Assembly: GCA_964599945.1 (NCBI GenBank)
Contig: CAZRHI010000001.1
Coordinates: forward strand, 2,565-66,564
Direction of reading: 5' to 3'
DNA length: 64,000 nt
Origin: an uncultured Acetobacter sp.
GTDB lineage: Bacteria > Pseudomonadota > Alphaproteobacteria > RF32 > CAG-239
The position numbers and the translations under genes were made by a program. The notes under the pieces are model-generated. The model had not been told where the DNA came from and searched no databases. It saw only the letters and a program-made list of their open reading frames with translations. How positions within the stretch are numbered: the stretch's first letter is position 1; each line of letters starts with the position of its first letter. Of the stretch, positions 23,751 through 55,492 are shown in pieces.

Positions 23751-26700
23751 TTAAAATAACTCAATATCTCCAGACATTTCATCATCATCTTTTGGATAAT
23801 CGGCTACTGTTCCATCTGCTGCTGGTGGTGGAATCGCTCCTGGAGCTGTGTTCTTTTGTTGTTTTTGTTGCCCATTGCCATTATTGCTAACTAGTGTAGC
23901 TCCTTGCTGTCCTTGTTTATTCTGAGCATTATTTGTATTTGAATTGTTATTTGTTTCTACCTTAGTTTCATTTCCGCTTCTATTAATCAAAATATTTTCT
24001 GCTTTTGTATTATTTAAGGTATCTTCCCCTTTTTCGATTTCTTTTGTACTTTTTAGCCACAAATCTGTCATTGGATAAATAATAATGCGTGTTCCTGCTG
24101 GTACATAAGTAACAGCTTCTATGTTTGATTTACTTTCGATAATTTCATCTAAGATGCTATTCATTTTATCTATAAACTGTTGACGCGCATCTGATGCTGC
24201 TTGTTGTTTTGATGTTTCAACCTCGCCTGTTGCATCTTCGTTTGCAGCCATTAAATATGCCATAGCTGATGTTGCTACTGTTCCAACTAATGGCATTGTA
24301 TACTTCTTCAACATCTGTTCATCAACATAACCGAGCGCACCACCACCTCGACCTTGAGCATCACCTGTTTGACTACTACTATCCAATATAAAAGCAATAC
24401 CATCTGGACGAATTATTCTATCCCACGTAATGTCTAACTTTACACCACCGCTTGTTCCATCAAAACGACTACCATTTGAGATATTACTTAGCCCACCGAT
24501 AATTCGGCTTCCTGCTGGAATAATTACATTGCGTCCCATATCTCCATAAATATTTCTTTCTACGATTGCTGTAATCGGCGCACTTCCTAATGATATTAAA
24601 GAGCGCGCAAGAACTGCTGGTATTGGCTTATCGGCTGTTATCATATTGCTCATATCAACTCGAAGACTAGATATTGAGCGTTCTACACCTGGCCAATTAT
24701 CTTGCCAACCAGTATAGGAAGTAGCATCAAATTGACTAGAAATAGATTTCCCTGACATGGACTGACGGCGATTATTCTGAAGTTGAGCAATAATAGCTGC
24801 ACGACGCGGATTATATCTTCCCCCTGGGCCAATCCCTCCCCCCGGGCCAACATTCACAGCTTCATTGTTTGTATTATATGGTGAGGCTGTTACCCCATTC
24901 ATAATACTTCTCCACCAATCTTTATCGACTGATTTATTTTTTTCTGTATCTTTTTCTTGGTAATTGCCAATAACATTGCCGTTTGCATCAACAATCTCTC
25001 CATTTTTTCCGCGGCTTCCGATGATGTTACCATGGCTATCTATAACATCGTTATTGCTATAGACATCACCGATATATTTTCCCCCTGGGGTTACTGCAAT
25101 TCCAACAATTTTATGTTTCGCCATCGTATTATTAACACGTTCTCTATCTATATTATACTCAGGCTCTTCTGTTTGGGAACTAATAATAGGTTCTTCAATC
25201 TGGTTATTGATATTTGTTTCTATTATTGTATTGTCTTTAATGTTTTCTTTTTCAGAAGGACTTGTTGGAGTAAGAACAGTTTGTTGCTCTGATACTATAT
25301 TATTTTTCTCTGGAAGTGTTTCTTGTTTGGTTTCTCTATGGTAATATTGCAGCGTATAAGCATTGGCAATAATTTCCCCAGAAGTGTCAACCACTTCACC
25401 TTTATCATTCAATTCTCCCACTTTGATATTTTTATGGTTAACTACACTTCCATCAAGATTTAAGTATCCAATTATCTTATTTTCTTTGTTTCGAATAATA
25501 TAATCCCTTTTGCCCCGAGCAATTAAATTTTGTTTTTTATCTAATACAAATCCTTTATAAATACTCCCTTTGACATCCCCCATAACGCTATATACTGTTC
25601 CATTTTTTGCAATATAGCCAACTGTTTTGCTGTTATTATCATATACATACAAATCATATAAAGCGAATCCACTATTACCGTTTTCTAAGGTTACAGAACC
25701 ATCAAAGTTAACCTTTCCTAAAACTTCTCCTACATCAGATAATACTGTTCCTGATGCATCCACTCGTCCTAGATATGTGTTGTTATCATCAAATGCCACA
25801 TTATATTTGAATATGCTCCCTATGTTTGCTCCATTGTTAGAATACACACCTTCATCTGCCCTAATATAGCCTGCTTGATTACCAATGCCGTCTATTACTT
25901 TTCCTGAAAAATCTACTTCTCCGATTATTGTATTATCATACCCCATAACTGATGCTGAGGGAATTATCTGACCAACAATTTCATTTTGAGAATTTCTTAT
26001 ATAGCCATTTATATCTTGGCAACCTAAATTGCGATTATCATAATTTAAAACTGTTCCCAATGGGGTTTCAACCCCTAAAATTTCCCCATTATCGCCTATA
26101 ACTGCTTGCGGATGAATTATATAACCAATAACTTCCTCTGTTTCGTTTACAACTTGATTATTGGCAAGGACTGTTCCAATATATTTCCCGTTAAAGTTTT
26201 TCACATCTCCATTATCTGATACAACACCTAAAAATTTGCAGTCTGGCTTTACCGCTACGCCAAATTCTAATGTTTTACCATATAAAGCACCTGCATTATC
26301 AAGAACATATTTATCTGAGCTTATTTTTCCGACAATTTCTCCCGCTGTTTTAATTTGTCCATCGGGATAATTCGCCCCCAAATAATCACCGTTAATACTT
26401 ATACTTAATGCTGAATTTCCAGCATATCCTCTCATTTGGTTTGATAAGATGATTTGATTATCTGGTAAAATTTTTGCAATAGTTTGATTTTGATTGTTTA
26501 TAATTAAATTAGACGGATTTGTATATCCTAACAAATTTCCATAAAAATCTGTCGCATAGTCTGCTATTAAAGCATTTCCTAGTAGTTTGTTATTTTTATC
26601 TAGAAGTAGCCCTGCTGAAGTTAGTTTGGCGATTTCATTCAAAGAAGCACTTTCTGTTTTTCCTAAGCCTGATGTATATGCCAAAATCTTTCCTTTATCT

Positions 26701-28028
26701 GCAATAATATTTGCAAAAGCATAATTTCTTCCTACAACTGCCCCTTTTTCATCAAATACATATCCGTATGGCGAAATTGTATATTCATTTCCATCTGCAT
26801 TTAAGCTTGTGGAGATACCATTAACACCAATAAACGTATTAAATGATGTGTAATTTAAAAGATTATTTAGAACGCGTCCAAATTCTTTACCTTTACGATC
26901 TATTGCTTTATTTTTTTGCGTGTATCCAAGTTCTGCGCCATCTAACGATATTATTTTTCCATCAACCGCAGCATTCGCACGTAGATTTCCTAAATAATCA
27001 AATATTGGCCCCACAGAGTTTATTGTTCCAATGACAACACCATTATTATTTACAACATTACCTGACGCACCAATTTTCCCTATAATTTGCTGAGATTTTA
27101 TGACATTTCCATTTGATACTAAACGTCCCAAATATTTCCCGTCTAGGGTATTGGCTGTGGCATTAGAACTAACTGCAAACCCCTGTAATTCTCCGTCTTT
27201 GCTGATGATACGATTGCCGACCACAGCAGAGCCAACAACTCTTCCTTTATCAACCACTTCACCATTATAACTTATGCTTCCAAGATAACTGCCATCCAGA
27301 TTAAACGCATATCCACTTTCAACAATATGCCCAATAACATTATTATCCGCATTATACACAAAGCCGTTTGCATGGATATTACCAATGACGGTCTTTTTCA
27401 AATCAACTACTTTTCCGTCTGGCGCAATACTTCCTAAAAAATTCCCCAAATTATCTATTACCATTTTAGAAGATATAAGTTTTCCAACAAGGGTCGTTTT
27501 TTGATCTGTTCCTTGAGGCGCAAAAACATATCCTGTTGCGGTTACATAACCTTTTTTTTCACCAGATAAACTATAGAAATTTCCATCGCCAGACACACGT
27601 CCCACAATTTTCCCTTTATCATCGTAGACAACTCCTGGGGCTATTACTGCACCTAAAACATCATCATTATCATTAACAACAAGTCCGTTTGGTAACACTC
27701 GTCCAACTAAAACATCGTTTAGAGAGGTTACTGTACCGTCATTATTTACCTTTCCTAGCACACTGTTTGTTATTGAAATGGCAACACCTTGTGGAACAAT
27801 TCCGCCAATTAAGATATTATCTTCATTTACAGCAAAACCGTCAGCCGTAATATGTCCAATCAACTCATTATCAAAATCGATAACAGAACCGTCTGGAATT
27901 ACTTTTCCTATTAAATTTCCATCAAAATCTAATGCACTAATATCTGCAGCTTTCAGCTCAGTCGAAACACTTACGAGCAAAAGCACACTCAGTATAATGC
28001 GTTTTAATTTTGATATTTTAATCTGCAA
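23751..28028 (-). CDS. virB10: VirB10/TrbI homolog with a ~1000-aa repeat-rich N-terminal extension
   Basis: The C-terminal ~350 aa carry the VirB10 barrel-domain signature (IPAGSRIIGG...ITWDRIIRPDGIAF...GALGYVDEQ). N-terminus has a signal/TM segment followed by DGxxIGxV repeats and Q/N/T-rich linkers. Confidence 0.8.
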   Translation of the reverse strand: MQIKISKLKRIILSVLLLVSVSTELKAADISALDFDGNLIGKVIPDGSVIDFDNELIGHITADGFAVNEDNILIGGIVPQGVAISITNSVLGKVNNDGTVTSLNDVLVGRVLPNGLVVNDNDDVLGAVIAPGVVYDDKGKIVGRVSGDGNFYSLSGEKKGYVTATGYVFAPQGTDQKTTLVGKLISSKMVIDNLGNFLGSIAPDGKVVDLKKTVIGNIHANGFVYNADNNVIGHIVESGYAFNLDGSYLGSISYNGEVVDKGRVVGSAVVGNRIISKDGELQGFAVSSNATANTLDGKYLGRLVSNGNVIKSQQIIGKIGASGNVVNNNGVVIGTINSVGPIFDYLGNLRANAAVDGKIISLDGAELGYTQKNKAIDRKGKEFGRVLNNLLNYTSFNTFIGVNGISTSLNADGNEYTISPYGYVFDEKGAVVGRNYAFANIIADKGKILAYTSGLGKTESASLNEIAKLTSAGLLLDKNNKLLGNALIADYATDFYGNLLGYTNPSNLIINNQNQTIAKILPDNQIILSNQMRGYAGNSALSISINGDYLGANYPDGQIKTAGEIVGKISSDKYVLDNAGALYGKTLEFGVAVKPDCKFLGVVSDNGDVKNFNGKYIGTVLANNQVVNETEEVIGYIIHPQAVIGDNGEILGVETPLGTVLNYDNRNLGCQDINGYIRNSQNEIVGQIIPSASVMGYDNTIIGEVDFSGKVIDGIGNQAGYIRADEGVYSNNGANIGSIFKYNVAFDDNNTYLGRVDASGTVLSDVGEVLGKVNFDGSVTLENGNSGFALYDLYVYDNNSKTVGYIAKNGTVYSVMGDVKGSIYKGFVLDKKQNLIARGKRDYIIRNKENKIIGYLNLDGSVVNHKNIKVGELNDKGEVVDTSGEIIANAYTLQYYHRETKQETLPEKNNIVSEQQTVLTPTSPSEKENIKDNTIIETNINNQIEEPIISSQTEEPEYNIDRERVNNTMAKHKIVGIAVTPGGKYIGDVYSNNDVIDSHGNIIGSRGKNGEIVDANGNVIGNYQEKDTEKNKSVDKDWWRSIMNGVTASPYNTNNEAVNVGPGGGIGPGGRYNPRRAAIIAQLQNNRRQSMSGKSISSQFDATSYTGWQDNWPGVERSISSLRVDMSNMITADKPIPAVLARSLISLGSAPITAIVERNIYGDMGRNVIIPAGSRIIGGLSNISNGSRFDGTSGGVKLDITWDRIIRPDGIAFILDSSSQTGDAQGRGGGALGYVDEQMLKKYTMPLVGTVATSAMAYLMAANEDATGEVETSKQQAASDARQQFIDKMNSILDEIIESKSNIEAVTYVPAGTRIIIYPMTDLWLKSTKEIEKGEDTLNNTKAENILINRSGNETKVETNNNSNTNNAQNKQGQQGATLVSNNGNGQQKQQKNTAPGAIPPPAADGTVADYPKDDDEMSGDIELF

Positions 28029-28029: not shown

Positions 28030-31000
28030 TCAGTTCCTCCGATTTTGAGCGACTTCTTCTAACACATAGCCGGAAACTTTGTTTTTTGTATTTACATATG
28101 AGCCATTGCTCTTTAAATATCCTATTTTTCCATTTGTAATACTTAACACACTACCATCTGGCGACAATCGTCCGAGGTATTTTCCGTCATTGCTTAATAT
28201 ATTAGCACCTATTTTATAGGTATGTCCTATAATTTTTCCATTGTTATCTACAACTAAATTTGATGAAATAACTTTTCCTATGACTGAACGTTCTTGATTA
28301 AGAACTTTTCCTTCCATATTTACAAAACCTATCACCTTGTCTTGTTCGTTGATGACAATATCGCCGTCAACAATTTCACCAATTAATTGACCTTTATCGT
28401 TTATAGCTTTCCCTGAATTTAATATCTTGCCTATTCTTACATTATTTTCACCCATAACCGAACCGTCTGCCACAACTTGTCCAATAACACGGCCAGAATA
28501 ATCAAGCACGACTCCTTGTCTCATGATACTATAATTTTTATTGGAATTCCCCCCTGGTAGGGCTGTGGTTAACACACTATCGTTTATATCAATAATATCT
28601 CCTAGAGCATTTAGATAGCCTTTTATATTCCCAAAGACATCAATAACCAAATTTTCTTTTATTACTTCGCCCACGATAACTTTATTAACATCTAGAATAT
28701 GCCCATCTGCGCTGATGAAACCACTTATACTACCGTCAACATCAATGACTTTACCACTTTTGCTAACATATCCTAGGTATGTGCCGTCATATCCTATACC
28801 TACACCTGTTTTGACAACACCACCTTTATATTCACCTTTATCATCAAACATTCTACCTTTGGCATCTACCCAGCCTAATTTTTTACCATACAGATTTATT
28901 ACATCTGCATTATCATTTACAAAACCTATATAATTACCATAAAAATCAATAACATTTCCTTTAGGTAATACTTTTAATGGCTTTCCAGAATTAAACGCAT
29001 AGCCGTCAAAAGTAATTTTATCAACCGCAACTCCTTTAGTATTATAAACATATCCGTCTGCAAAAATTCTACCAACAATCCGTCCATTTGCATCTACTAT
29101 AACATTTTTCTCAGGGAAAATTACCCCTTTTGCTATTTTTTTATTATTAACTAATAGATGATTTAATAAAATTTTTGTTTCAGGAATAACCTCTTGGCTA
29201 TTGTAATTGTATTGAGATAGATTATTGATAAATTCTCCAGATAAGTTATACGCCTGTGTCTTATCCATTATCTGACCAACAATAAAGCCATCTCTGTTTA
29301 GTATTTCTCCTTCCAAATTTGCACAACCAATAATATTTTTCCCAGAACTAACTGTTCCATTAGGACTGATTATGCCCATCATTTCGCCATTATAATATGT
29401 CGCATAACTGGCTTCGTAGACTTTACCAATTAGCTTTCCATCTGGATTTAAAACACCGCCATCTGGATTAACACACCCGATATACTCACCCTCTTCATTA
29501 CGAGCATAGCCGTCCGCACCTACTTTTCCTATAATATTACATTTGTTATCTCGTATCCAGCCAATTTTTATGACATCGCCAACGTATTTTCCGTCTTTAT
29601 CAACGATGCTTCTATCAAATAGCATTCTATAACCAGTTTCCTTATTATCTTTTTTAACATATCCGTCTTTATCAACGTATCCGTAATAAGTACAGCCCCA
29701 ACCAACAGCCATACCGCCAATGACAGCTTTTCCTATAATTTTTTTACCGTCTTTACTACGAATTAAATAATTTGGTAAAACTTTTCCGACTATTTCTTCT
29801 TTATTGTTAATAACATCACCATTATTGCCGATACGCCCAAGGCTATATCCATTAGGGGACATTGCTATCATATCCTTTTTAATGACCGCTCCAATTTTTA
29901 TACCTCTAGATGTTATAACATTTCCGTCTTCATCAACGAATCCAATAACAATATTGTTTAAATCGCGTACTTTTCCGTCGCTTCCCACATACCCGATAAT
30001 GTTACCCTCATCATCTACAACAAGATTTGAATAATTACCAACGACGCCTATAATATCTCCGTTTGCATCTATCGTAAATTCCATATCTTTTCCAGTTCGA
30101 CCAATGATGTTTCCGTCTTTATCTTTAATTGAACCGTCAGATTGTACTGTACCTAAAATATTCCCTTCAAAATCTCGTGCTATTCCGTTTTCATCAATGT
30201 AACCTATTACGGTGCCATTTTCATCTAAGACAGCTTTGCGTTTTATAATATTTAATTCACTATTTCCTTGTGATGATAAACGACCAATAATTTCTCCATT
30301 GCTACCATATACTGTACCGTCTTCAGATACAATGCCTACAATCTTTCCGTCATTACCAATTACTAGCCCATTTTCATCTATATAACCAATAATATTACCA
30401 TTTTCATCAACAGCCACTTTGGCATATTCACCCTCATAACCTATCAAATTACCATTCATATCATGTATTGTGCCATTTTCACCTAAATAGCCAATTAAAT
30501 TACCTTCAAAATCATGAACACTTCCTGTTTCATCAATGTATCCAATAACATTGCCGTTTTCATCATATGCCAAACGTTTGCTTATTCCTGCCGTACCTAA
30601 TATTTCATCTGTGATACAATATACATTTCCAAAATCATCAATAAAACCTAATAACTCATCATTTTCTTGATGTATTTTTTCATCTGTTCCTAAATAACCA
30701 ATGACATTTCCACTTTCATCTTGAGCAAACTCTACTAGTCTACCAACCTTACCAATATTGCGATCATATTCATCAACAATAATGCCTGTGGGGCGAGCTT
30801 TACCTATGTTTCGACCAGAGAAGTTAAATACTGTATTGTTCTCGCCAATATAGCCTATTGTTTTACCACTAGGACTTTGCGCAAGTAAGCCTCTTCTCCC
30901 GACTGTTGCAATTACTTCGTTAGTGTTTTTATAGATTTTGCCATTATCATCAAGAAATCCAACAAGTTTGTTTTTAAAATCTTTAATATTGCCATTATCC

Positions 31001-34000
31001 TCTACAAAACCAATAATTTTCCCGTCAATATCATACGCCAAATTGCTTAAAAGCTTGGTTGTTCCTATATTCTTTCCTGATGAAGATATAACATTTCCAG
31101 ATTCATCTAATTTTCCGATAATACTATTATTACCATTTACTATTTCATTGTTTTCATTAGAATATCCTAAAACCTCTCCATTTAGTCCATATGCAATATT
31201 AGAACTCTTACATGCCGTACATAGTGGTTCACCAACAGCTATTACTTCATTATTTTCATTAACATAGCCAATAACTTTTCCATTGTCATTTCTGGCAATT
31301 TTATTAGTATCCATTACACCAATTTTCTTATTATCATGACTAAGCAATGTTTTGGAAGCAATATCTAATCTACCGATAACATTTCGCTTCAAGGATAAAA
31401 CTGTTCCTGTGTTTTCTACAATACCTATGGGCAACTCTTCCTCACCGCGTAAATACCCTGCATTATCAATATACCCAATAATCGTATTCTTTTGTTGTGC
31501 CATATTGACAACTACACCAACTTTTCCAACGAGTTCGCCTCTGGTGTTTATTATATTATTATTTTCTTTTTTGCCGATAATCTTATTCTTAAAATTCTTA
31601 ACAGTACCGTCTTGTTCTATATATCCAATAGTTTCTCCACTCTTATTATATGCAATATTTCGTTTAACACAACTTTGCCCAATAATGGTGTTACTGGCTT
31701 TGATTACTTTTCCATACTCATCTACAAATCCTATTTTATCGTTATTTTCATTTGCCACATTACCATTTTTATTGATATAACCAAGAATTGTGCCGTCTTT
31801 ATTTATCGCCATTTTTACCTGAGTTTCATCAACTCTACCAATAGCTCTTCCATTTTTGTCTGTAATACTGTTATCAGGCATAACCTTACCAACTAGATTA
31901 TCTTTGAAACCTTTAACTGTTTTTTCAGTTGTAACATAGCCTAGTACTTTCCCACTTCTATCATACGCTAGGTATCTGTATGCTCCTATTTGACCGATAA
32001 TTCTGCCACATGATGCTTTTATATTTCCGTCTTTATCTACAACGCCAAGAATATTTCCCTTCTCATCAATTACGCGTCCTTTTTCATCAATATAGCCGAT
32101 AATTTCACCTTTATCATTTAAGGCGAGTTCGCGTACTTCTCCTGTTTTTCCAATAATATTACCTTTTGCATCAACAATATTACCGTCTTTATCCATTTTG
32201 CCAATAACATTGCCCTTAAAGTCTTTTACTGTGCCATCGGAATCTACATATCCAATTACGTTGCCGTCTCTATCATATGCTAAACGGCGAGATGTTCCTG
32301 CTTTACCTATTACTTTGCCGTCTGAACCTATGATATTGCCATTGCTATCAACAGAACCTAATAGTTTACCATCTTTTCCAATAACACGATTTTTCTCATC
32401 TACAAAACCAATTACTTTTCCATTGGAATCATATGCTAATGTTTTATAATCGCCAGCTTTGCCAATGACCTGACCATTTTTATCAACAATTTCACCTGAA
32501 GCATTCACTTTTCCTATAATGTTGCCCTCAAAATCTACAACATTGCCATTATCATCAATGTATCCGAGTACTTTTCCATCTTTTCCATATGCTAAGCGTT
32601 TTTTAGTAATTGCATTTTTTCCAGTTTGAGAACTTACAATGTTACCATTTTCATCAACAGTTCCTATTTGATTTCCTTTATCATCTAAAACGCGTCCAGC
32701 CTTATCAACATAGCCGATAACATTACCGTCTTTATCTAATGCTAGTCTTGCTGGCGAACCTGCTTTACCGATGACGTTTCCATTTTTATCAACAATATTA
32801 CCGTCTTTATTCATTTTCCCGATAACATTACCTTTAAAGTCTTTTACTGTGCCGTCTTTATCCACATAGCCAATGACGTTACCGTCAGCATCATAGGCTA
32901 ACCGACGAGATGTTCCAACCTTTCCGATTATTTCGCCTTTATTGTTTTTTGTATTTTTTAGGATATTGCCATTTCCGTCTACACGTCCGATAACATTGCC
33001 TTGCTTATCAAGAACCCGTCCATTTCTATCAACAAAGCCGATAACATTGCCATTTTTATCTAGAGCTAACCGCGCTGGCACACCTGCTTTTCCGATAACA
33101 TTGCCATTTTTATCTATAATGTTACCCTTTTTATCCATTTTACCAATGGTATTACCATTGAAATCTTTAACTGTGCCGTCTTTTTCAATATACCCTATCA
33201 CGTTACCGTCTTTGTCATAGGCTAAACGACGCGCTTCTCCAACTTTTCCGATAACCTCATCCTTATCTTTTAATTCTTTTACGACATTTCCATTCTCATC
33301 AGCATAACCAACGAGATTTCCTTGACTATCAAACACTCTCCCTTTTTCATCAACATAGCCAATAACTTTACCATCTTTATCTATAGCTAATTTAGAAAGA
33401 GTGCCTGCTTTGCCAATCACATCCCCATTTTCATCAATAATATTACCGTCTTTATCCATTTTGCCAATGACTTTACCATTGAAGTCTTTAACGGTGCCGT
33501 CGGAATCAACATAACCTATCACGTTGCCGTCTTTGTCATGGGCTAAACGACGGGCTTCCCCGACTTTACCAATAACATTATCATCTTCATTTAGCTCTTT
33601 AACAATATTACCATTTTCGTCAACATAGCCAATAAGATTCCCTTTTTTATCAAGTGCACGTCCTTTTTCATCAACATAACCTACGACTTTACCATTTTTA
33701 TCCAATGCTAATTTGGCAGATGCGCCAGCTTTGCCAACAATATTCCCTTTTTCGTCAATAATATTGCCGTCTTTATCCATTTTTCCGATGACTTTACCAT
33801 TGAAATCTTTAACCGTGCCGTCGGAATCAACATACCCTATCACGTTGCCGTCTTTGTCATAAGCTAAACGATGTTCTTCCCCGATTTTACCAACAATACC
33901 GTCATCTTCTTCGGCAAATTTGACAACTTTACCGTCGGAATCAACATATCCTATAACGCTTCCTAGCTCATCTATAACACGCCCTTTCTCATCAATATAG

Positions 34001-37000
34001 CCGATAACATTACCGTCTTCATCAAGTGCTAATCGACGCTCTTCACCTGCTTTGCCGATGATATTCCCATTTTTATCTACGATATTGCCATTTTCATCGA
34101 TTTTTCCAATTACATTACCGCTAAAATCTTTAACAGTACCATCTTCATCTACATAACCAATGACCTTACCGTCGGAATCATATGCCAAGCGACGAGCTTC
34201 GCCAGCTTTGCCGATAACTGTTCCTTTGGCTTCAATGATATTCCCATTTTTGTCTGTATATCCTATTTGGTTGCCCTTTTCATCAAATACATGACCTTTT
34301 TCATCAATATAACCAATAACATTTCCTGCTTTATCTTTTGCCAATTTGGCTAGTTCGCCAGCTTTACCGATGACGTTTCCATTTTTATCCACAATATTAC
34401 CATTTTCATCAACTTTTCCGATAACATTACCTTTAAAGTCTTTAACTGTACCGTCGGAATCAACATAACCAATTACATTCCCGTCAGAATCATAAGCCAA
34501 ACGGCGACTTTCTCCTGCAAAACCTAAAATTTCACCTTTTATTGGCTCTTCGGCATATTTGACGATATTACCTTCTTTATCTGCATAGCCGATTTCTTTG
34601 CTATTTTCATCAAATACACGCCCTTTTTCATCAACATAGCCAACAACTTTACCATTTTTATCTAAAGCTAATTTAGCATTCTTTCCAGCTTTACCGATAA
34701 CGTTACCATTTTTATCTACAATATTGCCATTTTCATCTACTTTACCAATAACATTGCCTTTGAAATCTTTAACTGTGCCGTCAGCATCAATATACCCTAT
34801 CACATTACCGTCGGAATCATAAGCTAAGCGACGCTCTTCACCAACTTTCCCGACAACTGTGCCTTTGGCCGCAATAATATTTCCATTTTTACCAGTATAA
34901 CCTATTTGGTTACCATTCTTATCAAATACTCGCCCTTTCTCATCAACATAACCTATAACTTTACCCGCTTTGTCTAGAGCTAACTTGGCATTACTTCCTG
35001 CTTTGCCGATGATGTTACCATTTTTATCTATAATATTACCATTTTTATCTACTTTACCAATAACCTTACCATTAAAATCTTTTACTGTGCCGTCTTTTTC
35101 AACATAACCAATTACATTACCGTCTTTATCTAGGGCTAAACGACGTGTTTCTCCCACTTTTCCAATAACAGGAGCTTTGGTGGCAACGATATTTCCGTTT
35201 TTATCCATATGTCCGATTTGATTTCCTTTTTCATCAAACACACGACCTTTTTCATCTACATAGCCAATAACTTTGCCATTTTTATCAAGAGCTAACTTAG
35301 CTGTTTTCCCTGCTTTGCCAATAATATTACCTTTTTTATCTACGATATTGCCGTCTTTATCCATTTTACCAACAACGTTGCCTTTGAAGTCTTTAACCGT
35401 GCCGTCGGAATCAACATAACCTATCACATTACCATTTTTATCATACGCTAAACGGCGATTTTCTCCTACTTTGCCGATAATTGGAGCTTTAGGTGCATAG
35501 ATATTACCATTTTTATCAGTCTGTCCGATGAGATTTCCTTTTTCATCAAACACACGACCTGTTTCGTCTACATAGCCAATGACATTACCATTTTTATCCA
35601 ATGCTAATTTAGCATTACTTCCTGCTTTACCGATGATGTTACCATTTTTATCTACGATATTTCCATTTTTATCCACTTTACCAATAGCGTTACCTTTGAA
35701 ATCTTTAACTGTGCCGTCTTTTTCAACATAACCTATCACATTACCATTTTTATCATATGCTAAGCGACGGCTTTCTCCTACTTTGCCGATACGTGGATCT
35801 TTAGTTGCTATTATATTACCATTTTTATCAGTCTGCCCAATTTGATTTCCTTTTTCATCAAACACACGCCCTGTTTCGTCTACATAGCCAATCACTTTTC
35901 CATTTTTATCTAATGCTAATTTAGCATTACTTCCTGCTTTACCGATGATGTTACCATTTTTATCAATAATATTACCGTCTTTATCCGTTTTACCGATAAT
36001 ATTACCATTGAAGTCTTTAACGGTTCCGTCTGTATCAATATACCCTATCACATTACCATTTTCATCTAAAGCTAAACGACGCGTTTCCCCGATTTTTCCA
36101 ATAATTTCGCCATTCTTTTCTATATCGGCAAATTTAACAACATTACCGTTATCATCAATATACCCTATTGCTTTTCCCTCTTTGTCATAAACTAATTTAT
36201 GACTATCACCATTAGTACCAATTTTACTTTCTGATAATCTGTAAACATTGCCATTTTCATCTACATATCCAACAATATTACCGTCTTTATCAACCACGCT
36301 ATTGTCTGGCATAACGATACCTATAACATTGCCATTTTCATCTAGTGCTACACGTCCTGCTGAGGTTACTCTCCCGATAACATTACCGTCTTTATCTATA
36401 ACCTCGCCATTTGCATTAAGTCGTCCAATAATTTTTTTAGGATTATTTATGTCTACAACTGTTCCGTCTGGCAATACCCTACCAATAATTTTACCTTCAT
36501 CATCATAAACATATCCTGCTTCTACAGCTTTTCCGATAACCTCACCAGCTTCATTAACAATCGTCCCGTCGGATAAAACTTTCCCTATTATTTCTCCTTG
36601 CGCATCAACAACTGTCCCGTCTGTTCTTACATAACCAATCAAATTACCGTCTTTATCAAACGCTAAACGCATATTTTGCGCCACACCTATTATATTCCCC
36701 TCTGCGTCAATAATTAACCCGTCTTCATTAACTTTTCCGATAATCCGACCATCTTTATCATGCACATTTCCAGCTTCATCAATATAACCAATAACTTCTC
36801 CATTTGGACCTATAGCTAATCTATGTGCGCTTATGGAACTTCCGTCAAACGAGCAACTCCCGGTGGTACTATTACATATTTGGCGGTTATCTTCTGGGTA
36901 TACAGCACTCCCTCGGATACTGACTTCTTCAGATTTTGCATTATCTCTACTTAATCTTGTTTCATACCAGATTACTTTGAAATTATTTTGAACATTACCT

Positions 37001-37485
37001 GCCAGATGTGGAGACCATGAGATTAAAACATTACATGTTTCATCGCCACTTAAATCTCTGTTTTTGCATTTATCACGAAACTCAAAACCGTCTTCTGTTT
37101 CTTCTACTAATTCTACTCGTTCAATATGGATACTTTCTGTTCCGTCTGTTCCTATCGTTAAAATGCTCTGATTTTGTTCGTCAATTCCTAGAACAAATTT
37201 GTGCATATTAATTTGTTCAGGAGTAATTCTTATTGGCTTCTTATTTTCTGATGTGTTTTCATCTTCTACACCAATAAATAAATTTTCTTCTTCCTTATCC
37301 AGATTAGGCACAATATCTTGATTTTCTGTAAAAACAGGTGCTTCTTCCTCTGGATTATATGTATCATCATCGGAGCCTAACATGAGCAACCCAAACAGAA
37401 ACAAAACACCTGCAATAATTCCTATTATAAGAATTATTCTTCGGGTTTTTTGTTCGTATTCTTCAAAACGGGTATTATTGCTCAT
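28030..37485 (-). CDS. giant (3151 aa) single-pass membrane protein composed of DxxGxx(I/V)G repeats; T4SS-associated and function unknown
   Basis: Uninterrupted ORF. N-terminal transmembrane anchor (IILIIGIIAGVLFLFGLLML), then about 3000 aa of beta-type repeats with no identifiable enzymatic domain. Its start codon overlaps the virB9 stop (ATGA) and its stop abuts the virB10 start. Confidence 0.75.
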   Translation of the reverse strand: MSNNTRFEEYEQKTRRIILIIGIIAGVLFLFGLLMLGSDDDTYNPEEEAPVFTENQDIVPNLDKEEENLFIGVEDENTSENKKPIRITPEQINMHKFVLGIDEQNQSILTIGTDGTESIHIERVELVEETEDGFEFRDKCKNRDLSGDETCNVLISWSPHLAGNVQNNFKVIWYETRLSRDNAKSEEVSIRGSAVYPEDNRQICNSTTGSCSFDGSSISAHRLAIGPNGEVIGYIDEAGNVHDKDGRIIGKVNEDGLIIDAEGNIIGVAQNMRLAFDKDGNLIGYVRTDGTVVDAQGEIIGKVLSDGTIVNEAGEVIGKAVEAGYVYDDEGKIIGRVLPDGTVVDINNPKKIIGRLNANGEVIDKDGNVIGRVTSAGRVALDENGNVIGIVMPDNSVVDKDGNIVGYVDENGNVYRLSESKIGTNGDSHKLVYDKEGKAIGYIDDNGNVVKFADIEKNGEIIGKIGETRRLALDENGNVIGYIDTDGTVKDFNGNIIGKTDKDGNIIDKNGNIIGKAGSNAKLALDKNGKVIGYVDETGRVFDEKGNQIGQTDKNGNIIATKDPRIGKVGESRRLAYDKNGNVIGYVEKDGTVKDFKGNAIGKVDKNGNIVDKNGNIIGKAGSNAKLALDKNGNVIGYVDETGRVFDEKGNLIGQTDKNGNIYAPKAPIIGKVGENRRLAYDKNGNVIGYVDSDGTVKDFKGNVVGKMDKDGNIVDKKGNIIGKAGKTAKLALDKNGKVIGYVDEKGRVFDEKGNQIGHMDKNGNIVATKAPVIGKVGETRRLALDKDGNVIGYVEKDGTVKDFNGKVIGKVDKNGNIIDKNGNIIGKAGSNAKLALDKAGKVIGYVDEKGRVFDKNGNQIGYTGKNGNIIAAKGTVVGKVGEERRLAYDSDGNVIGYIDADGTVKDFKGNVIGKVDENGNIVDKNGNVIGKAGKNAKLALDKNGKVVGYVDEKGRVFDENSKEIGYADKEGNIVKYAEEPIKGEILGFAGESRRLAYDSDGNVIGYVDSDGTVKDFKGNVIGKVDENGNIVDKNGNVIGKAGELAKLAKDKAGNVIGYIDEKGHVFDEKGNQIGYTDKNGNIIEAKGTVIGKAGEARRLAYDSDGKVIGYVDEDGTVKDFSGNVIGKIDENGNIVDKNGNIIGKAGEERRLALDEDGNVIGYIDEKGRVIDELGSVIGYVDSDGKVVKFAEEDDGIVGKIGEEHRLAYDKDGNVIGYVDSDGTVKDFNGKVIGKMDKDGNIIDEKGNIVGKAGASAKLALDKNGKVVGYVDEKGRALDKKGNLIGYVDENGNIVKELNEDDNVIGKVGEARRLAHDKDGNVIGYVDSDGTVKDFNGKVIGKMDKDGNIIDENGDVIGKAGTLSKLAIDKDGKVIGYVDEKGRVFDSQGNLVGYADENGNVVKELKDKDEVIGKVGEARRLAYDKDGNVIGYIEKDGTVKDFNGNTIGKMDKKGNIIDKNGNVIGKAGVPARLALDKNGNVIGFVDRNGRVLDKQGNVIGRVDGNGNILKNTKNNKGEIIGKVGTSRRLAYDADGNVIGYVDKDGTVKDFKGNVIGKMNKDGNIVDKNGNVIGKAGSPARLALDKDGNVIGYVDKAGRVLDDKGNQIGTVDENGNIVSSQTGKNAITKKRLAYGKDGKVLGYIDDNGNVVDFEGNIIGKVNASGEIVDKNGQVIGKAGDYKTLAYDSNGKVIGFVDEKNRVIGKDGKLLGSVDSNGNIIGSDGKVIGKAGTSRRLAYDRDGNVIGYVDSDGTVKDFKGNVIGKMDKDGNIVDAKGNIIGKTGEVRELALNDKGEIIGYIDEKGRVIDEKGNILGVVDKDGNIKASCGRIIGQIGAYRYLAYDRSGKVLGYVTTEKTVKGFKDNLVGKVMPDNSITDKNGRAIGRVDETQVKMAINKDGTILGYINKNGNVANENNDKIGFVDEYGKVIKASNTIIGQSCVKRNIAYNKSGETIGYIEQDGTVKNFKNKIIGKKENNNIINTRGELVGKVGVVVNMAQQKNTIIGYIDNAGYLRGEEELPIGIVENTGTVLSLKRNVIGRLDIASKTLLSHDNKKIGVMDTNKIARNDNGKVIGYVNENNEVIAVGEPLCTACKSSNIAYGLNGEVLGYSNENNEIVNGNNSIIGKLDESGNVISSSGKNIGTTKLLSNLAYDIDGKIIGFVEDNGNIKDFKNKLVGFLDDNGKIYKNTNEVIATVGRRGLLAQSPSGKTIGYIGENNTVFNFSGRNIGKARPTGIIVDEYDRNIGKVGRLVEFAQDESGNVIGYLGTDEKIHQENDELLGFIDDFGNVYCITDEILGTAGISKRLAYDENGNVIGYIDETGSVHDFEGNLIGYLGENGTIHDMNGNLIGYEGEYAKVAVDENGNIIGYIDENGLVIGNDGKIVGIVSEDGTVYGSNGEIIGRLSSQGNSELNIIKRKAVLDENGTVIGYIDENGIARDFEGNILGTVQSDGSIKDKDGNIIGRTGKDMEFTIDANGDIIGVVGNYSNLVVDDEGNIIGYVGSDGKVRDLNNIVIGFVDEDGNVITSRGIKIGAVIKKDMIAMSPNGYSLGRIGNNGDVINNKEEIVGKVLPNYLIRSKDGKKIIGKAVIGGMAVGWGCTYYGYVDKDGYVKKDNKETGYRMLFDRSIVDKDGKYVGDVIKIGWIRDNKCNIIGKVGADGYARNEEGEYIGCVNPDGGVLNPDGKLIGKVYEASYATYYNGEMMGIISPNGTVSSGKNIIGCANLEGEILNRDGFIVGQIMDKTQAYNLSGEFINNLSQYNYNSQEVIPETKILLNHLLVNNKKIAKGVIFPEKNVIVDANGRIVGRIFADGYVYNTKGVAVDKITFDGYAFNSGKPLKVLPKGNVIDFYGNYIGFVNDNADVINLYGKKLGWVDAKGRMFDDKGEYKGGVVKTGVGIGYDGTYLGYVSKSGKVIDVDGSISGFISADGHILDVNKVIVGEVIKENLVIDVFGNIKGYLNALGDIIDINDSVLTTALPGGNSNKNYSIMRQGVVLDYSGRVIGQVVADGSVMGENNVRIGKILNSGKAINDKGQLIGEIVDGDIVINEQDKVIGFVNMEGKVLNQERSVIGKVISSNLVVDNNGKIIGHTYKIGANILSNDGKYLGRLSPDGSVLSITNGKIGYLKSNGSYVNTKNKVSGYVLEEVAQNRRN
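32700..36100 (-). repeat. about 11 tandem near-identical copies of a ~315-bp (105-aa) coding repeat inside the giant gene
   Basis: A recurring protein unit ...RRLAYDKDGNVIGYVDSDGTVKDFKGNVIGKVDENGNIVDKNGNIIGKAG-AKLALDKNGKVIGYVDEKGRVFDEKGNQIG... Identical nucleotide strings (e.g. ccgtcggaatcaacataacctatcac) recur at about 315-bp spacing. Antisense ORFs in the track show a repeated PITLPSLS pattern from the same repeats. Confidence 0.8.
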
Positions 37486-39767
37486 TGTATCCTAACCACA
37501 CTACAAAAGATTCCGTTACGACCTAATTGACTACAGATATTATCCCCGTCTTCAAGTGATTTGATTGGACCAACGCGTAAATGGAAAAGCTCTTTTCCTT
37601 GTCCATCTGCCGCAGTATCTACGGAATAGAAAGGTTGATACGACCCAATAGCTGCTGAATTATGCTTGGAAATATCATTCCATAATTTTTCCAAATTATT
37701 TACATTTTCATCTGTTCCTAATTCTATAGAAATATTACTTTCATTTGTTCCATTAAACGATTTTCCTGAGCGAAATTCTTTTAATAGAGCTTCCGTTTCT
37801 GCAGAAATCATACTTTTTTCTTGATCTTCAATTCTTGGCGCAATCAAGACTGGACTCGAATTATTTTGAGATGCCCCTATTTGCGCTATATTTGCATTAT
37901 TGGTTTGCCCCGCTTGAGGGGATATTGCAGAAGCTGATTGCTTATCTGCTTGATAGGTAACTCCAACATTTACACCTTGATTATTATAATCTGGAGTTAT
38001 TAGCTCTGCTTGTCCTGCTCTTATATCATATTGACCTGTTAAGACCTCTTTTGATTGCTGTGGTGTTCCGCTAATCGGCATTACCTTTGGTAACGAATCG
38101 ATTTGCGCCATATTATTTTGCCCTAATGTTGTCGATGTGTTTCCAGCATTTTGAGGTAATGTATTAAAAAAACTACTATTATCAAAAAATGACTGCAAAC
38201 CACCGCTATTAGCAGATGCGCCTTGAGTACCATTTGCTGTGTTGGCTTTGCCATCTCCACTCATCACATTATTACTGGTATTGCCTGAAAGGCCTGCTGG
38301 AAACATACCACCTGATGCACCTTGTCCACCATTTGCACCGTTGGTGTTGTAGCCATTTCCACCTACGGCATTATTACTGGTATTTCCTGAAAAACCTGCT
38401 GGAAGCATTCCACCTGATGCACCTTGTCCACTATTTACGCCATTGGGATTGTAGCTATTTCCACCTACGGCATTATTACTGGTATTTCCGAAAAAACCTG
38501 CTGGGAACATACCACCTGATGTTCCTTGTCCGCTATTTATGACGTTAGTATTGTAGCCATTTCCACCAACCGCTCCATTCGCACTTCCTTGGAAATTTGT
38601 AGACGACGGCATATTAGATGTTGCTCCTTCATAAACATTTTCTACTCGCCCTGTTTCATTATTTACAGAGTTCTCACCACCTTGGGTTGGATTGGAAGCA
38701 TAACTCGATTGTAAATCCCATTCATTTGTTTTGGCATATATTGTATTTTCTAACCCATCGGAATCTGCGCGACGCAACTTTAAGCACACAAGCCTTTTAC
38801 CGCTACGCATAACCATATCCCCCATTCCTTCAACAATAATCAAACGATTATTTGGACCAGCCGCACGGAAACCTACTGGCGTTTCTGAACGTTCCACAAT
38901 TAACGTAACAATCGGACGTTGTACTGCTGTTAAAGCTTTTTCACCTAAATCTATATATGTAAAGATGTTATCTCGCCACACACGTTCTGGCGCAATAACA
39001 ATATCATCAGGATTAGGAACATAAACCTCTATATCAAAACGAAATTTTGTTGGGTCAACAGGGATTTTTTCTATCCAATCTTCTTTTTGCAAATCCCGCG
39101 TATATGTTGAGGCAGCACTAGTTCCGTCTTGCGAATAATTACTTCCACCACTAGCATATCCTCCGCCACATCCACCAGCGGAGCCATTAGCCGCACTTTG
39201 CTTCTTTTTTACAACTTCAATATCAATAATCGCGTTTGTAATTCTATCTGTATTTATAGTTTCACTTTGTACATAAAAAACATATTTATTTCCTGAGCGT
39301 CCAAACACAATCATATTTGTATCAACACCAACAAACTGAGAGGCTTCAGGATATACCATTAAACTTGAAGGACCTTGAATTTCAGCGGTAAAAGATTGTC
39401 CATCTCCTAAATAGACATTTTCCACCACTTCCCAACTTGGAAAGTTAACCAACGTATACATACCCTCACGAACACGAATTGGCAACACCATTTCTGGTGT
39501 CCAGTAATATTTAGTATACCCTGGTCGGCTTTGTCCTTCTCCCATATGTTGCATAGGGTCTTTCCACGCGCTTTGCATCATTCCTAAAGACCCACTTCCG
39601 AGATAATTCAAATTAGTCGCAGCATAATTGCCTTGAGCTTGGTCTGCATTCTGATCTAATACACTTTTAGTAACCTGCGCATAAGCAAGACTCCCTGTTA
39701 ACTGTAACAGAAAAATTGCAGATAATAAATAACTATTTTTTCTCATAACACAAACCTTAAATTTCAA
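37482..39767 (-). CDS. virB9: VirB9/CagX/TrbG homolog (761 aa) with G/N/S-rich tandem repeats and a SPOR-like C-terminal domain
   Basis: Signal peptide. VirB9 N-domain (YTLVNFPSWEVVENVYLGDG...MIVFGRSGNKYVFYVQ) and VirB9 C-domain (...IVIAPERVWRDNIFTYIDLGEK...). Three ~37-aa Gly/Asn repeats. C-terminus ...LFHLRVGPIKSLEDGDNICSQLGRNGIFCSVV resembles a SPOR peptidoglycan-binding fold. Confidence 0.7.
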   Translation of the reverse strand: MKFKVCVMRKNSYLLSAIFLLQLTGSLAYAQVTKSVLDQNADQAQGNYAATNLNYLGSGSLGMMQSAWKDPMQHMGEGQSRPGYTKYYWTPEMVLPIRVREGMYTLVNFPSWEVVENVYLGDGQSFTAEIQGPSSLMVYPEASQFVGVDTNMIVFGRSGNKYVFYVQSETINTDRITNAIIDIEVVKKKQSAANGSAGGCGGGYASGGSNYSQDGTSAASTYTRDLQKEDWIEKIPVDPTKFRFDIEVYVPNPDDIVIAPERVWRDNIFTYIDLGEKALTAVQRPIVTLIVERSETPVGFRAAGPNNRLIIVEGMGDMVMRSGKRLVCLKLRRADSDGLENTIYAKTNEWDLQSSYASNPTQGGENSVNNETGRVENVYEGATSNMPSSTNFQGSANGAVGGNGYNTNVINSGQGTSGGMFPAGFFGNTSNNAVGGNSYNPNGVNSGQGASGGMLPAGFSGNTSNNAVGGNGYNTNGANGGQGASGGMFPAGLSGNTSNNVMSGDGKANTANGTQGASANSGGLQSFFDNSSFFNTLPQNAGNTSTTLGQNNMAQIDSLPKVMPISGTPQQSKEVLTGQYDIRAGQAELITPDYNNQGVNVGVTYQADKQSASAISPQAGQTNNANIAQIGASQNNSSPVLIAPRIEDQEKSMISAETEALLKEFRSGKSFNGTNESNISIELGTDENVNNLEKLWNDISKHNSAAIGSYQPFYSVDTAADGQGKELFHLRVGPIKSLEDGDNICSQLGRNGIFCSVVRIQ
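38240..38615 (-). repeat. three tandem ~111-bp repeats encoding (GNTSNNAVGGNGYNTNGVNSGQGASGGMFPAGFS) within virB9
   Basis: Protein-level repeat seen in the translation. An antisense ORF at 38216-38542 shows a repeated HLMHLVHYLRHW pattern from the same DNA repeats. Confidence 0.7.
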
Positions 39768-40523
39768 TTACTTTCGTTCTCTTTGTTTATATTCAACAAC
39801 AGTAAACCCTAGCGGATTTTTCAACCTTTCACCAAACCTCACCTTTTTGCTTCGATATCTTATGGTCATATTTACAACCCAAACACTTATTTGAGGCGTT
39901 TCCCTTTCAGGTGTCATATCTTCTACTTGAAATTCGACTTCCCACCCCATACCATTTTTTTGTACACCAACTTCTTTGGCTGATTTAATCTTTATGTTAC
40001 GGGTTAAATTATACTGACGAATCTGCTCCATAGCTCTTTTAGCAACATTTTCTCGGAAATCACTATAAACCTTCGTGCTTGACATCTCTTGAAGATTGCT
40101 ACCTGGATCCCAACGCTCTTTCATCTCCGCCTCATCATTAACAAAGGTATTGCGAAGAAGAATATACTCTCTTACAAACATTTCTGTTAAATATTTATAA
40201 TCATAAATCTTTTTGACTTCTTCAATATGGTAAATTTGCTCTTTCTTATCAGCAAAACTAAACAAATATGGTTCAACTCGATACAATGGAATCGTCGTCA
40301 TAATCACATATGTTAGGATAAAATTGCAACACAAACTTACAGCAAAAACTATTGCAAACGCACGAGCCGTCCACAAATAACGTTTTTCTGTTGCATTTTC
40401 AACAATCGTATCCGCAGATGCTTTTCGCCGTTGACGAATCGGCTGAGGTGTTGGTGCCGCTTTTGCACCATTCCCCTCTAACAGTACTCGTTTCGTATTT
40501 TCTGAAGAAATTTGTTCTACCAT
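39768..40523 (-). CDS. virB8: VirB8
   Basis: 251 aa, bitopic with an N-terminal cytoplasmic tail and one TM. NTF2-like C-domain with the conserved NPLGF motif. Confidence 0.8.
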   Translation of the reverse strand: MVEQISSENTKRVLLEGNGAKAAPTPQPIRQRRKASADTIVENATEKRYLWTARAFAIVFAVSLCCNFILTYVIMTTIPLYRVEPYLFSFADKKEQIYHIEEVKKIYDYKYLTEMFVREYILLRNTFVNDEAEMKERWDPGSNLQEMSSTKVYSDFRENVAKRAMEQIRQYNLTRNIKIKSAKEVGVQKNGMGWEVEFQVEDMTPERETPQISVWVVNMTIRYRSKKVRFGERLKNPLGFTVVEYKQRERK

Positions 40524-40545
40524 TCCCTATTTCCTATAGTAGCTA

Positions 40546-40734
40546 TTAGCTCATAGCTTTAAACCAATCTGGCAGTGTTTTAGGTAGTTCAACTTCTATA
40601 CACGCACAAGGAGAAAGCTTTAATTCGTATATATCTTTACCAATTCCTACTGGTTCTGGTTCATAATATGTCCCTAAAACATTGCACGCAGCCAAAATTA
40701 AAATTGCAAAAACTAAAATCAACGCTTTATACAT
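40546..40734 (-). CDS. virB7: VirB7-like small outer-membrane lipoprotein
   Basis: 62 aa with a lipobox ILAAC, at the canonical VirB7 position between the virB8 paralogs and virB9. Confidence 0.5.
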   Translation of the reverse strand: MYKALILVFAILILAACNVLGTYYEPEPVGIGKDIYELKLSPCACIEVELPKTLPDWFKAMS

Positions 40735-40878
40735 AATTCTCCCTCTTTTTTAAAATAATCCTTTCTTATAATTAGAACTTTTATTTTTAAAAGTCTAACG
40801 AGAAAATGAAATGCGTTGACTTATCAACAGGCTAATTTTCTCCTCTGATATTATAATACTCAAATATTTAAGATTATT

Positions 40879-41679
40879 TTAATTTTCAATTTCACTCTGA
40901 GAGTAATGAATAACTGCAAAACCCAGAGGATTTAACAACCGACGATATGCTGTTCTTCGGTTAGGATATGTACGACAACGTATTGTTACTGTCCAATATC
41001 TTTCTTCAATTTTTGGCTCAATTTTTTGTTGTCCTACTGAGTCTTTTGGAAATGAGTAGTCGTATGTTTTAAACTCAACATTCCACGCATAACTATTGTT
41101 TCCACCAGAGCGTTCAACTGACAATATCTCAACAGAGCGACTTGCCTTGCTTTCATTTAGTTCCTTGGTAACTTTTGGATATTCTTTTTCAAACGCTTTG
41201 TAGACCTTATATGTAGATAAATAGGATACTAAACCACCCCATAACCAACGTTTTTTCATCTCCGCTTCATCTTTAATAAAGGTATTTCTTAGCTCAACAT
41301 ATTGCTTTATAAAGTTTACCATTATTCGTTCTCGTGAAATCATTTCATATTTTACATTTTCACAGTCTGTTGTTTCACACTTTGGCATAACGGCGGTGAT
41401 ATATTTGCGTTTTACAAGTGATTGCGAATCTGATAATTCCACAAAAATTTGAGGATCTATCATAATGTTTGGTACTAATTTTAATATTACCAACGTTGCG
41501 GAAATGGTGTATAATATAGCTATGCTTGCTAGCAACACCATCAAATGACTTATCCATTTGTAGTAAATAAGCTTTGCACGACGTACTTCTATTACATCTT
41601 CTGTAATAAATTCAGGCGCATTTCTTGTTTTAGTCTTGTCAGTTATTTGATGTATTTTTTGGTTTGCCAGCTCTGCCAT
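40879..41679 (-). CDS. second VirB8-family paralog
   Basis: 266 aa, bitopic, C-terminal ...YRRLLNPLGFAVIHY with the same NPLGF motif as the 251-aa VirB8. Confidence 0.65.
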   Translation of the reverse strand: MAELANQKIHQITDKTKTRNAPEFITEDVIEVRRAKLIYYKWISHLMVLLASIAILYTISATLVILKLVPNIMIDPQIFVELSDSQSLVKRKYITAVMPKCETTDCENVKYEMISRERIMVNFIKQYVELRNTFIKDEAEMKKRWLWGGLVSYLSTYKVYKAFEKEYPKVTKELNESKASRSVEILSVERSGGNNSYAWNVEFKTYDYSFPKDSVGQQKIEPKIEERYWTVTIRCRTYPNRRTAYRRLLNPLGFAVIHYSQSEIEN

Positions 41680-46750: not shown

Positions 46751-46767
46751 GGTTTTCTCCTTTACTT

Positions 46768-48126: not shown

Positions 48127-48139
48127 TTTCGCTAGCTCC

Positions 48140-48826: not shown

Positions 48827-48831
48827 TTCTA

Positions 48832-51075: not shown

Positions 51076-51119
51076 ATCAGTTCTCCCAATAATTTCTTTT
51101 TATATATACACTAAATAGT

Positions 51120-55482: not shown

Positions 55483-55492
55483 GACAATTCTC

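Follow-up and report, generated by a model that had tools for sequence, protein, structure and literature searches.

A divergent VirB9-family protein with a predicted disordered linker and a C-terminal SPOR-family domain in an uncultured alphaproteobacterium

How type IVA secretion machines are positioned and held in the peptidoglycan layer is poorly defined, and the locus described here raises the question of whether a subunit of the core ring might itself reach the cell wall. It lies in a 64,000-nucleotide stretch of DNA (the window) from an uncultured gut bacterium, Acetobacter sp. of the alphaproteobacterial RF32 lineage (GenBank assembly GCA_964599945.1, contig CAZRHI010000001.1, positions 2,565 to 66,564, forward strand). 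An open reading frame (ORF) of 761 codons at 37482-39767 on the minus strand, its frame unbroken, encodes a VirB9-like protein with a long C-terminal extension. Judged by sequence and predicted structure, the product is VirB9, a subunit of the outer-membrane core, from a chromosomal type IV secretion system (T4SS) of the VirB type, and is equipped with a tether predicted to be disordered and a SPOR domain. The reading we favour, with moderate confidence, is that this tail fixes or positions the T4SS outer-membrane complex through binding of peptidoglycan by the SPOR domain; we infer the periplasmic location, the copy number in the ring, and the binding and anchoring to peptidoglycan.

A VirB9-family core and a SPOR-family terminus

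The ORF as called mechanically begins at a TTG (39767) that abuts the stop codon of the upstream virB8. The likely start is the ATG at 39746, because an AAGG ribosome-binding site is present 9 nucleotides (nt) upstream and the N-termini of homologues agree with it. The coding sequence would then be 37482-39746, specifying 754 amino acids (aa) plus the stop codon, with the following parts:

37482..39767, minus strand: virB9-SPOR ORF, 761 codons from TTG; likely coding sequence 37482-39746, 754 aa
39678..39746, minus strand: predicted signal peptide, aa 1-23 (ending ...SLAYA, followed by QV), read from the sequence; position kept in homologues
38727..39677, minus strand: VirB9/CagX core, aa 24-340 (PF03524, Foldseek, dN/dS about 0.02)
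39093..39206, minus strand: Gly-rich variable insert between the two VirB9 domains, aa 181-218 (low conservation; pLDDT below 50)
37752..38726, minus strand: G/N/S/Q-rich low-complexity linker, aa 341-665 (about 325 aa), predicted to be disordered, with a few semi-conserved islands
38267..38585, minus strand: three tandem 34-aa (102-nt) repeats, from Tandem Repeats Finder and the register on the protein; specific to the window's genome
37767..37802, minus strand: short predicted helix, aa 649-660 (AETEALLKEFRS), directly before the SPOR domain; kept in close relatives only
37485..37745, minus strand: SPOR-family domain, aa 668-754 (about 85 aa), from Pfam, phmmer, an AlphaFold2 (AF2) model, Foldseek and dN/dS

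Here pLDDT is the predicted local distance difference test and dN/dS the ratio of nonsynonymous to synonymous substitution rates. The predicted signal peptide of the 754-aa product reads MRKNSYLLSAIFLLQLTGSLAYA, and its region forms a helix (residues 2-16) in the full-length AlphaFold model.

The original prediction took this protein for a VirB9 homologue, and the Pfam match, the Foldseek matches and the position between virB8 and virB10 all bear this out. The Pfam CagX/VirB9 family (PF03524, cut-off 34.2 bits) matches aa 85-329 of the 761-aa ORF with 50.6 bits, covering profile positions 4-195 of 198. The NCBIfam equivalog for P-type VirB9 (TIGR02781) is not reached, scoring 31.4 bits on the N-terminal part only against a cut-off of 217.7; by sequence, the window protein belongs to the VirB9/CagX family as a divergent member and is not an equivalog of plasmid P-type VirB9. 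Public annotation of these proteins says only "TrbG/VirB9 family". In the full-length AlphaFold model the N-terminal beta-sandwich (approximately aa 76-178) has a pLDDT of 83-91, and the VirB9 C-terminal domain (approximately aa 238-322) is of low confidence. Foldseek returned VirB9 of the Xanthomonas citri core complex as the best PDB match of the model (6gyb_B, E 5.8e-11), together with 8rt6_B (TrwF/VirB9 of R388, E 1.7e-10), 8rt6_v (template modelling (TM) score 0.78), the TrwF N-terminal domain (7o3t_B, TM 0.71), DotH (7muc) and CagX (6x6j_AX). The predicted model has the two-domain beta-sandwich fold of solved VirB9 subunits.

With the type IVA core proteins VirB9, TrbG, TraO and TrwF, the window protein shares a signal peptide, two beta-sandwich domains, virB8 and virB10 as neighbouring genes and a small lipoprotein encoded nearby. 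Unlike them, it has approximately 420 extra C-terminal residues, made up of the disordered linker and the SPOR domain, and a Gly-rich insert between the two VirB9 domains. CagX of the Helicobacter pylori Cag T4SS, from which the Pfam CagX/VirB9 family takes its name, is likewise a VirB9 homologue of larger size. The extension of CagX is N-terminal and is not known to contain a SPOR or other peptidoglycan-binding domain. CagX C-terminal extensions, which had been proposed for comparison, would thus provide no analogue of the SPOR tail of the window protein.

The C-terminus had also been described as SPOR-like, and this is borne out by sequence, remote homology and predicted fold; the motif LFHLRVGPIKSLEDGDNICSQLGRNGIFCSVV, on which the description was based, is present in the protein. 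Against Pfam SPOR (PF05036, gathering score 21 bits) the whole protein reaches 21.4 bits, and its last 109 aa taken alone reach 26.6 bits (E 7.8e-6). When 1.84 billion cluster representatives were searched by phmmer for the last 110 aa, 137 matches came back, the nearest being the C-termini of proteins of 450-610 aa that are themselves CagX plus SPOR. The next matches, at E 1e-12 to 1e-8, are proteins in which Pfam SPOR finds two or three strong repeats (74-110 bits), and these matches are reciprocal. The AF2 model of the domain, built on a 32-sequence alignment, has a pLDDT of approximately 90 and the order beta-alpha-beta-beta-alpha-beta of the RNP-like SPOR fold. Its top PDB match in Foldseek is the SPOR domain of Pseudomonas aeruginosa RlpA (6i09; TM 0.79, root-mean-square deviation 2.2 A, E 2.3e-4), and ranks 2-4 are RlpA 6i05 (TM 0.76, deviation up to 2.4 A), Bacillus subtilis CwlC 1x60 and Escherichia coli DedD 6ztg, all of them SPOR domains; the two RlpA entries represent the domain with and without denuded glycan. 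By sequence alone, phmmer of the last 110 aa against the PDB gave no matches, and the 32-sequence profile gave only chance matches there (E at least 0.37). These empty searches are in line with the less than 20% pairwise identity reported for SPOR domains. With Pfam, remote homology and the predicted fold as three independent lines, we regard the SPOR homology and fold of the terminal domain as secure.

Like the SPOR domains of FtsN, DamX, DedD, RlpA and CwlC, that of the window protein combines a Pfam SPOR score, the beta-alpha-beta-beta-alpha-beta fold and basic residues on beta3, and FtsN likewise has a long disordered linker before its SPOR domain. One difference is the setting: the window SPOR domain sits on a secretion-system subunit, whereas theirs sit on divisome proteins or wall hydrolases.

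A conserved domain on a variable linker

An extension of this size could have arisen from misannotation or misassembly, or be a fusion in decay, and the window copy is indeed longer than each of the 120 best homologues (754 aa, compared to 578-697 aa). This is due to the repeat insertion described below. The C-terminal SPOR domain, however, ends 120 of the 120 best homologues, all from gut metagenome-assembled genomes (MAGs), and is in frame in each; the refuting outcome named in the original prediction, an extension absent or frameshifted in related genomes, did not occur. The relatives are MAGs of uncultured Alphaproteobacteria from the guts of humans, mice and ruminants and share the gene order, and more than 1000 sequences of the clade are found in gut metagenomes at E of 1e-3 or below. 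Position by position, conservation in the SPOR region is close to that in the VirB9 core, and the region between them is variable in both sequence and length. Substitution rates follow the same pattern, as given below for dN/dS and for the proportion of nonsynonymous differences (pN) by the Nei-Gojobori method in 19 genes; synonymous sites are near saturation, so that the ratios are rough, while the contrast in pN is unambiguous:

VirB9 N-terminal domain: dN/dS 0.019, pN 0.040
VirB9 C-terminal domain: dN/dS 0.016, pN 0.035
Linker: dN/dS 0.334, pN 0.41
SPOR domain: dN/dS 0.048, pN 0.079

The SPOR domain is under strong purifying selection. Given the intact frame, the presence of the domain in every homologue from independent assemblies and its low dN/dS, we rejected the artefact or pseudogene reading, to which we assign a negligible probability.

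The linker is of a different nature. It is rich in Gly (16%), Asn (15%) and Ser (12%), and aa 331-647 have a pLDDT below 50 and no secondary structure in the full-length model. Its predicted disorder and wide range of lengths among relatives, from approximately 45 aa in Sphingomonadales to approximately 325 aa in the window genome, are as expected of a flexible tether, which we take the linker to be. Three G/N-rich tandem repeats had been noticed in it, and they are present, although with a unit of 34 aa rather than about 37 aa. At 38267-38567, Tandem Repeats Finder detects 3.0 copies of a 102-nt unit (86% matches, score 455), corresponding to three units of TSNNAVGGNGYNTNGxNxGQGASGGMFPAGxSGN at aa 388-489 of the 754-aa protein. 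The units are pairwise 79-87% identical as protein and 86% as DNA, an array far beyond chance. The motif was not found in the 120 best homologues, a tblastn search of the window and of the relatives' loci compared with it placed the 34-aa unit inside the virB9-SPOR gene only, and in a per-position comparison at least 86% of relatives have no residues over the repeat region (aa 381-519). By sequence comparison, the repeats are an insertion specific to the window's genome, in a linker that is variable and predicted to be disordered, and do not characterise the family; the best reading is that a tolerant linker was recently expanded in frame, not that the repeats form a functional module.

A long, low-complexity linker with repeats does recall the stalks of adhesins, and the number of repeats differs between genomes, so that one could imagine the tail crossing to the cell surface, where the SPOR-like domain would bind glycans or peptidoglycan of target cells. 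We consider this very improbable: no outer-membrane translocation or anchoring module is present, the linker is as short as approximately 45 aa in relatives, and VirB9 is on the periplasmic side in solved cores.

The combination of VirB9 and SPOR extends to distant proteins with 33-49% identity in the domain. In two distant loci, L023 and L024, the arrangement virB8-lipoprotein-virB8-virB9-(giant)-virB10(beta-flower)-virB11 is the same as in the window. When a plasmid collection was searched by tblastn, all 20 plasmid VirB9 matches aligned to aa 1-339 only. The nearest plasmid VirB9s, from an Erythrobacter aureus YH-07 plasmid (432 aa, L025 6923-8221) and from Sphingosinicella sp. BN140058 p1 (430 aa, L026 3019-4311), nevertheless end, after a short linker, in a C-terminus of like pattern (…YEVDLGSG…VRLRVGPF…C…C…). 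Searched with the clade profile in a six-frame ORF set, they score 19.8 and 24.1 bits (E 9e-5 and 4e-6, respectively), whereas Pfam SPOR does not reach E 0.1 on either protein. Their SPOR-like two-Cys domain has Asp at the position of the canonical Gln (see below), and both plasmid systems have a VirB10 of ordinary size; the Erythrobacter plasmid T4SS locus also encodes a coupling protein. In a Microvirga sp. VF16 plasmid VirB9 (550 aa, L027 2761-4413) the linker is Pro/Ala-rich and the terminus, which has two Cys as well, is not matched by the clade profile, and an Azospirillum plasmid VirB9 lacks such a C-terminal extension. A SPOR-type C-terminus is thus probably present in plasmid VirB9s of cultured Sphingomonadales. 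Since these match the clade profile and occur with an ordinary-size VirB10, the VirB9-SPOR fusion probably predates the gut clade, extends beyond it and is not tied to the gigantism by beta-flower repeats that is seen there.

The binding face and the ligand of the SPOR domain

Structures of RlpA bound to glycan provide a guide to what a SPOR domain needs for its classical ligand. RlpA Q270, equivalent to FtsN Q251, is the sole highly conserved ligand residue and contacts MurNAc(1) and GlcNAc(2) (N-acetylmuramic acid and N-acetylglucosamine), and a Phe at position 12 stacks on GlcNAc(4) (PMC6895207). In alignments to the nearest bona fide SPOR domains, the beta1 strand of the clade (ISIELGTD) aligns with the canonical xxQxGxF motif.

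Several observations weigh against the reading that the tail holds the machine by binding peptidoglycan. The position of the canonical Gln is Glu in 31 of the 32 VirB9-type representatives and Gln in just one (it is Glu675 in the window protein), compared to Gln in 135 and Glu in 17 of the related non-VirB9 SPOR domains. At position 12 of the hidden Markov model (HMM), where 117 of the related non-VirB9 domains have Phe or Tyr, every VirB9-type representative has Asp, Asn or Gly and none an aromatic residue. The window domain thus has neither the beta1 Gln nor the aromatic at HMM position 12. In FtsN, the same change (Q251E) reduces both septal localisation and denuded-glycan binding (bioRxiv 10.1101/2024.05.13.594014). 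In addition, the link to solved SPOR structures runs through a predicted model, sequence and profile searches of the PDB having missed them, and no peptidoglycan amidase, lytic transglycosylase (SLT) or M23 protein was recognised in the operon of the window.

Other features of the face are retained. On strand beta3, where H722 and R724 sit in the window domain, Arg or His is present at -5 (34/36) and Arg at -3 is invariant, counted from the G-P turn; the residue at -5 is the equivalent of FtsN R285 (RlpA R309). Cys738 and Cys748 are invariant, a pair that related SPOR domains conserve too, and probably form a stapling disulfide; the pair is located in alpha2/beta4, as opposed to beta1/beta4 in FtsN. 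Conserved surface residues specific to the clade are an aromatic pair in beta2, Glu at -8, Arg at beta4+4 and a terminal Gln. On this evidence the binding face of the window SPOR domain is non-canonical, even though the domain is homologous and strongly selected. Because Glu replaces the canonical Gln and the aromatic is lost, the domain probably prefers a ligand other than the classical denuded septal glycan. Denuded glycan is defined by a free lactyl carboxylate, and exchanging the amide of Gln for the carboxylate of Glu should make its binding less favourable; Glu could instead suit strands that bear peptides or other modifications, or a partner that is not a glycan.

These residues bear directly on what the tail might do. 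If the domain were a canonical SPOR domain that binds amidase-made denuded glycans, it would target or retain the T4SS at the division septum and the new poles. All characterised SPOR domains are reported to bind denuded glycans; fold and basic beta3 residues are conserved, and the operon of one distant relative contains an M23/LytM protein. We nevertheless think this quite unlikely, given that Gln-to-Glu and the loss of the aromatic affect essentially the whole clade, that Q251E weakens precisely denuded-glycan binding in FtsN (bioRxiv 10.1101/2024.05.13.594014), and that an amidase or LytM gene was not found in the window's operon. The relative's protein is a 487-aa Peptidase_M23/LytM protein in the T4SS cluster of L024 (4172-5635, 104.6 bits), which may point to a link between wall remodelling and SPOR in some members; the syntenic 452-aa ORF of the window is unrelated to it (BLASTP E 0.72, no Pfam M23).

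The fold could instead have been co-opted, with the domain docking on a T4SS component (the beta-flower VirB10 or giant protein, VirB7 or a neighbouring VirB9) and not binding peptidoglycan at all. The loss of both best-conserved ligand residues and the presence of the clade-specific surface residues listed above would fit such a role, as would the co-occurrence of SPOR with a beta-flower-enlarged VirB10 in the gut and metagenome clade. We rate it as unlikely: the Sphingomonadales plasmid systems appear to pair a SPOR-like C-terminus with an ordinary-size VirB10, and the basic beta3 residues typical of glycan binding are kept. We also know of no SPOR domain that acts as a protein-binding module.

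A further proposal, which we put forward tentatively and with low confidence, is that the VirB9-attached SPOR domain has been re-specified by the fixed Gln-to-Glu change together with the loss of the aromatic, away from septal denuded glycans and towards peptide-bearing or modified peptidoglycan or a protein partner.

Returning to peptidoglycan attachment, the reading we prefer, a mechanism can be outlined. Known type IVA cores are rings of VirB9, VirB7 and VirB10 with 14-fold symmetry (PMC9302130). VirB9 of the window would likewise form the outer-membrane core ring with VirB7 and VirB10, and since a core complex would have approximately 14 copies of VirB9, each ring may carry a skirt of approximately 14 tethered SPOR domains in the periplasm. 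The extension would leave the VirB9 C-terminal domain as a long, fast-evolving, disordered G/N/S-rich tether, which in the window genome appears to have been lengthened by a recent duplication (3 x 34 aa). The SPOR domains would most likely bind glycan strands of the sacculus around the machine and so fix or position the outer-membrane complex relative to the wall. FtsN has the same layout, with a long Q-rich linker between its membrane anchor and its SPOR domain, but it starts from the inner membrane, whereas the VirB9 tail would start from the outer-membrane complex. To us the most economical view is that many flexible links attach the core complex to the sacculus. The nearest functional analogues are DotK and Dis1 (Lpg0657) of the Legionella Dot/Icm system, which likewise place peptidoglycan-binding-type domains in a T4SS outer-membrane core (PMC9302130). 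These have an OmpA-like fold and are separate lipoprotein subunits of a type IVB system, whereas in the window a SPOR domain is fused to VirB9 itself.

The surrounding secretion cluster and the meaning of the fusion

The cluster is on the minus strand and contains, in order, three virB2 genes, a VirB3-size ORF, virB4, four unmatched ORFs, a 1683-aa ORF, virB8, a lipoprotein gene, virB8, virB9, a giant ORF, virB10 and virB11. Closest to virB9 are the following genes:

39768..40523, minus strand: virB8 paralogue directly upstream of virB9 (Pfam VirB8, 63.1 bits)
40546..40734, minus strand: predicted lipoprotein of 62 aa (lipobox LAAC; MYKALILVFAILILAAC...), candidate VirB7 from its sequence
28030..37485, minus strand: 3151-aa beta-flower-repeat protein (Bflower_2, 766 bits); its ATG overlaps the virB9 stop (ATGA)
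23751..28028, minus strand: VirB10, 1425 aa, TrbI domain at aa 1130-1325, enlarged by beta-flower repeats

The overlap of the virB9 TGA with the ATG of the giant ORF (caATGAgc) suggests translational coupling. The lipoprotein has no Pfam match; a gene for 62-63 aa is present at the equivalent place in L023 and L024. It is flanked in the window by two VirB8 paralogues (251 and 266 aa; 39768-41679, minus strand), a triplet also found in L024. The 3151-aa giant between virB9 and virB10 consists almost entirely of beta-flower repeats (36 Bflower_2 stretches; Bflower; DUF3659) and has a predicted short cytoplasmic N-terminus and one transmembrane segment, like VirB10. In the relatives L003, L023 and L024 its place is taken by a gene of 1563-2093 aa, or by none. 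VirB10 of the window has approximately 1100 aa of beta-flower repeats before TrbI, an unusual, approximately 3-fold enlargement of a periplasm-spanning subunit, and VirB10 of L023 (11563-16086, 1507 aa) is built alike.

At the other end of the cluster are three consecutive VirB2/TrbC-like pilin paralogues (125, 126 and 160 aa; 55075-56412, minus strand), of which the first and last, the two that were scanned, match Pfam TrbC; they are followed by the VirB3-size ORF (54700-54990) and VirB4. Five ORFs of the cluster (1683, 452, 228, 747 and 356 aa; 41699-52190, minus strand) have no convincing family match, and no VirB6-like polytopic protein, VirB1-type transglycosylase or VirD4 coupling protein was recognised in the window. 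The G+C content is approximately 35%, and the flanking genes are chromosomal housekeeping genes (yidC, engB, dnaA, dnaN, recF, mfd). With dnaA, dnaN and recF at 12433-16429 (plus strand), approximately 7 kb from the virB11 end, the T4SS cluster would be close to the presumed chromosomal replication origin. Divergently oriented genes with the domains TcpQ, secretin and PilO (PAP_PilO) at 58151-62835 (plus strand) form a type IVb-pilus-like locus that adjoins the cluster.

Our literature search found no paper that joins VirB9 with a SPOR domain and none on type IV secretion in RF32 Alphaproteobacteria. Among papers with T4SS, SPOR and peptidoglycan terms, none ties SPOR to a T4SS subunit by title or abstract, and a 2025 review of T4SS nomenclature does not contain the terms SPOR, OmpA-like or LysM. 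The VirB9 and SPOR families are already known; what appears to be new is the fusion of a core T4SS subunit to a domain of wall-binding type. The wall-binding modules known from T4SSs are the separate OmpA-like subunits of the type IVB Dot/Icm system, and a SPOR domain fused to a core ring subunit would be a simple and genetically tractable solution to the positioning of a type IVA machine in the wall. The clade is also naturally fixed for Gln-to-Glu, the substitution used to cripple denuded-glycan binding in FtsN, which makes it a test case for a shift in SPOR specificity, and the weight of the finding grows if this change proves to re-specify the ligand. Were re-specification true, some 14 tethers could hold the T4SS to the wall at any site or arrange the giant beta-flower proteins, and the protein would be the first case both of a non-canonical SPOR ligand and of a peptidoglycan clamp built into a type IVA core subunit.

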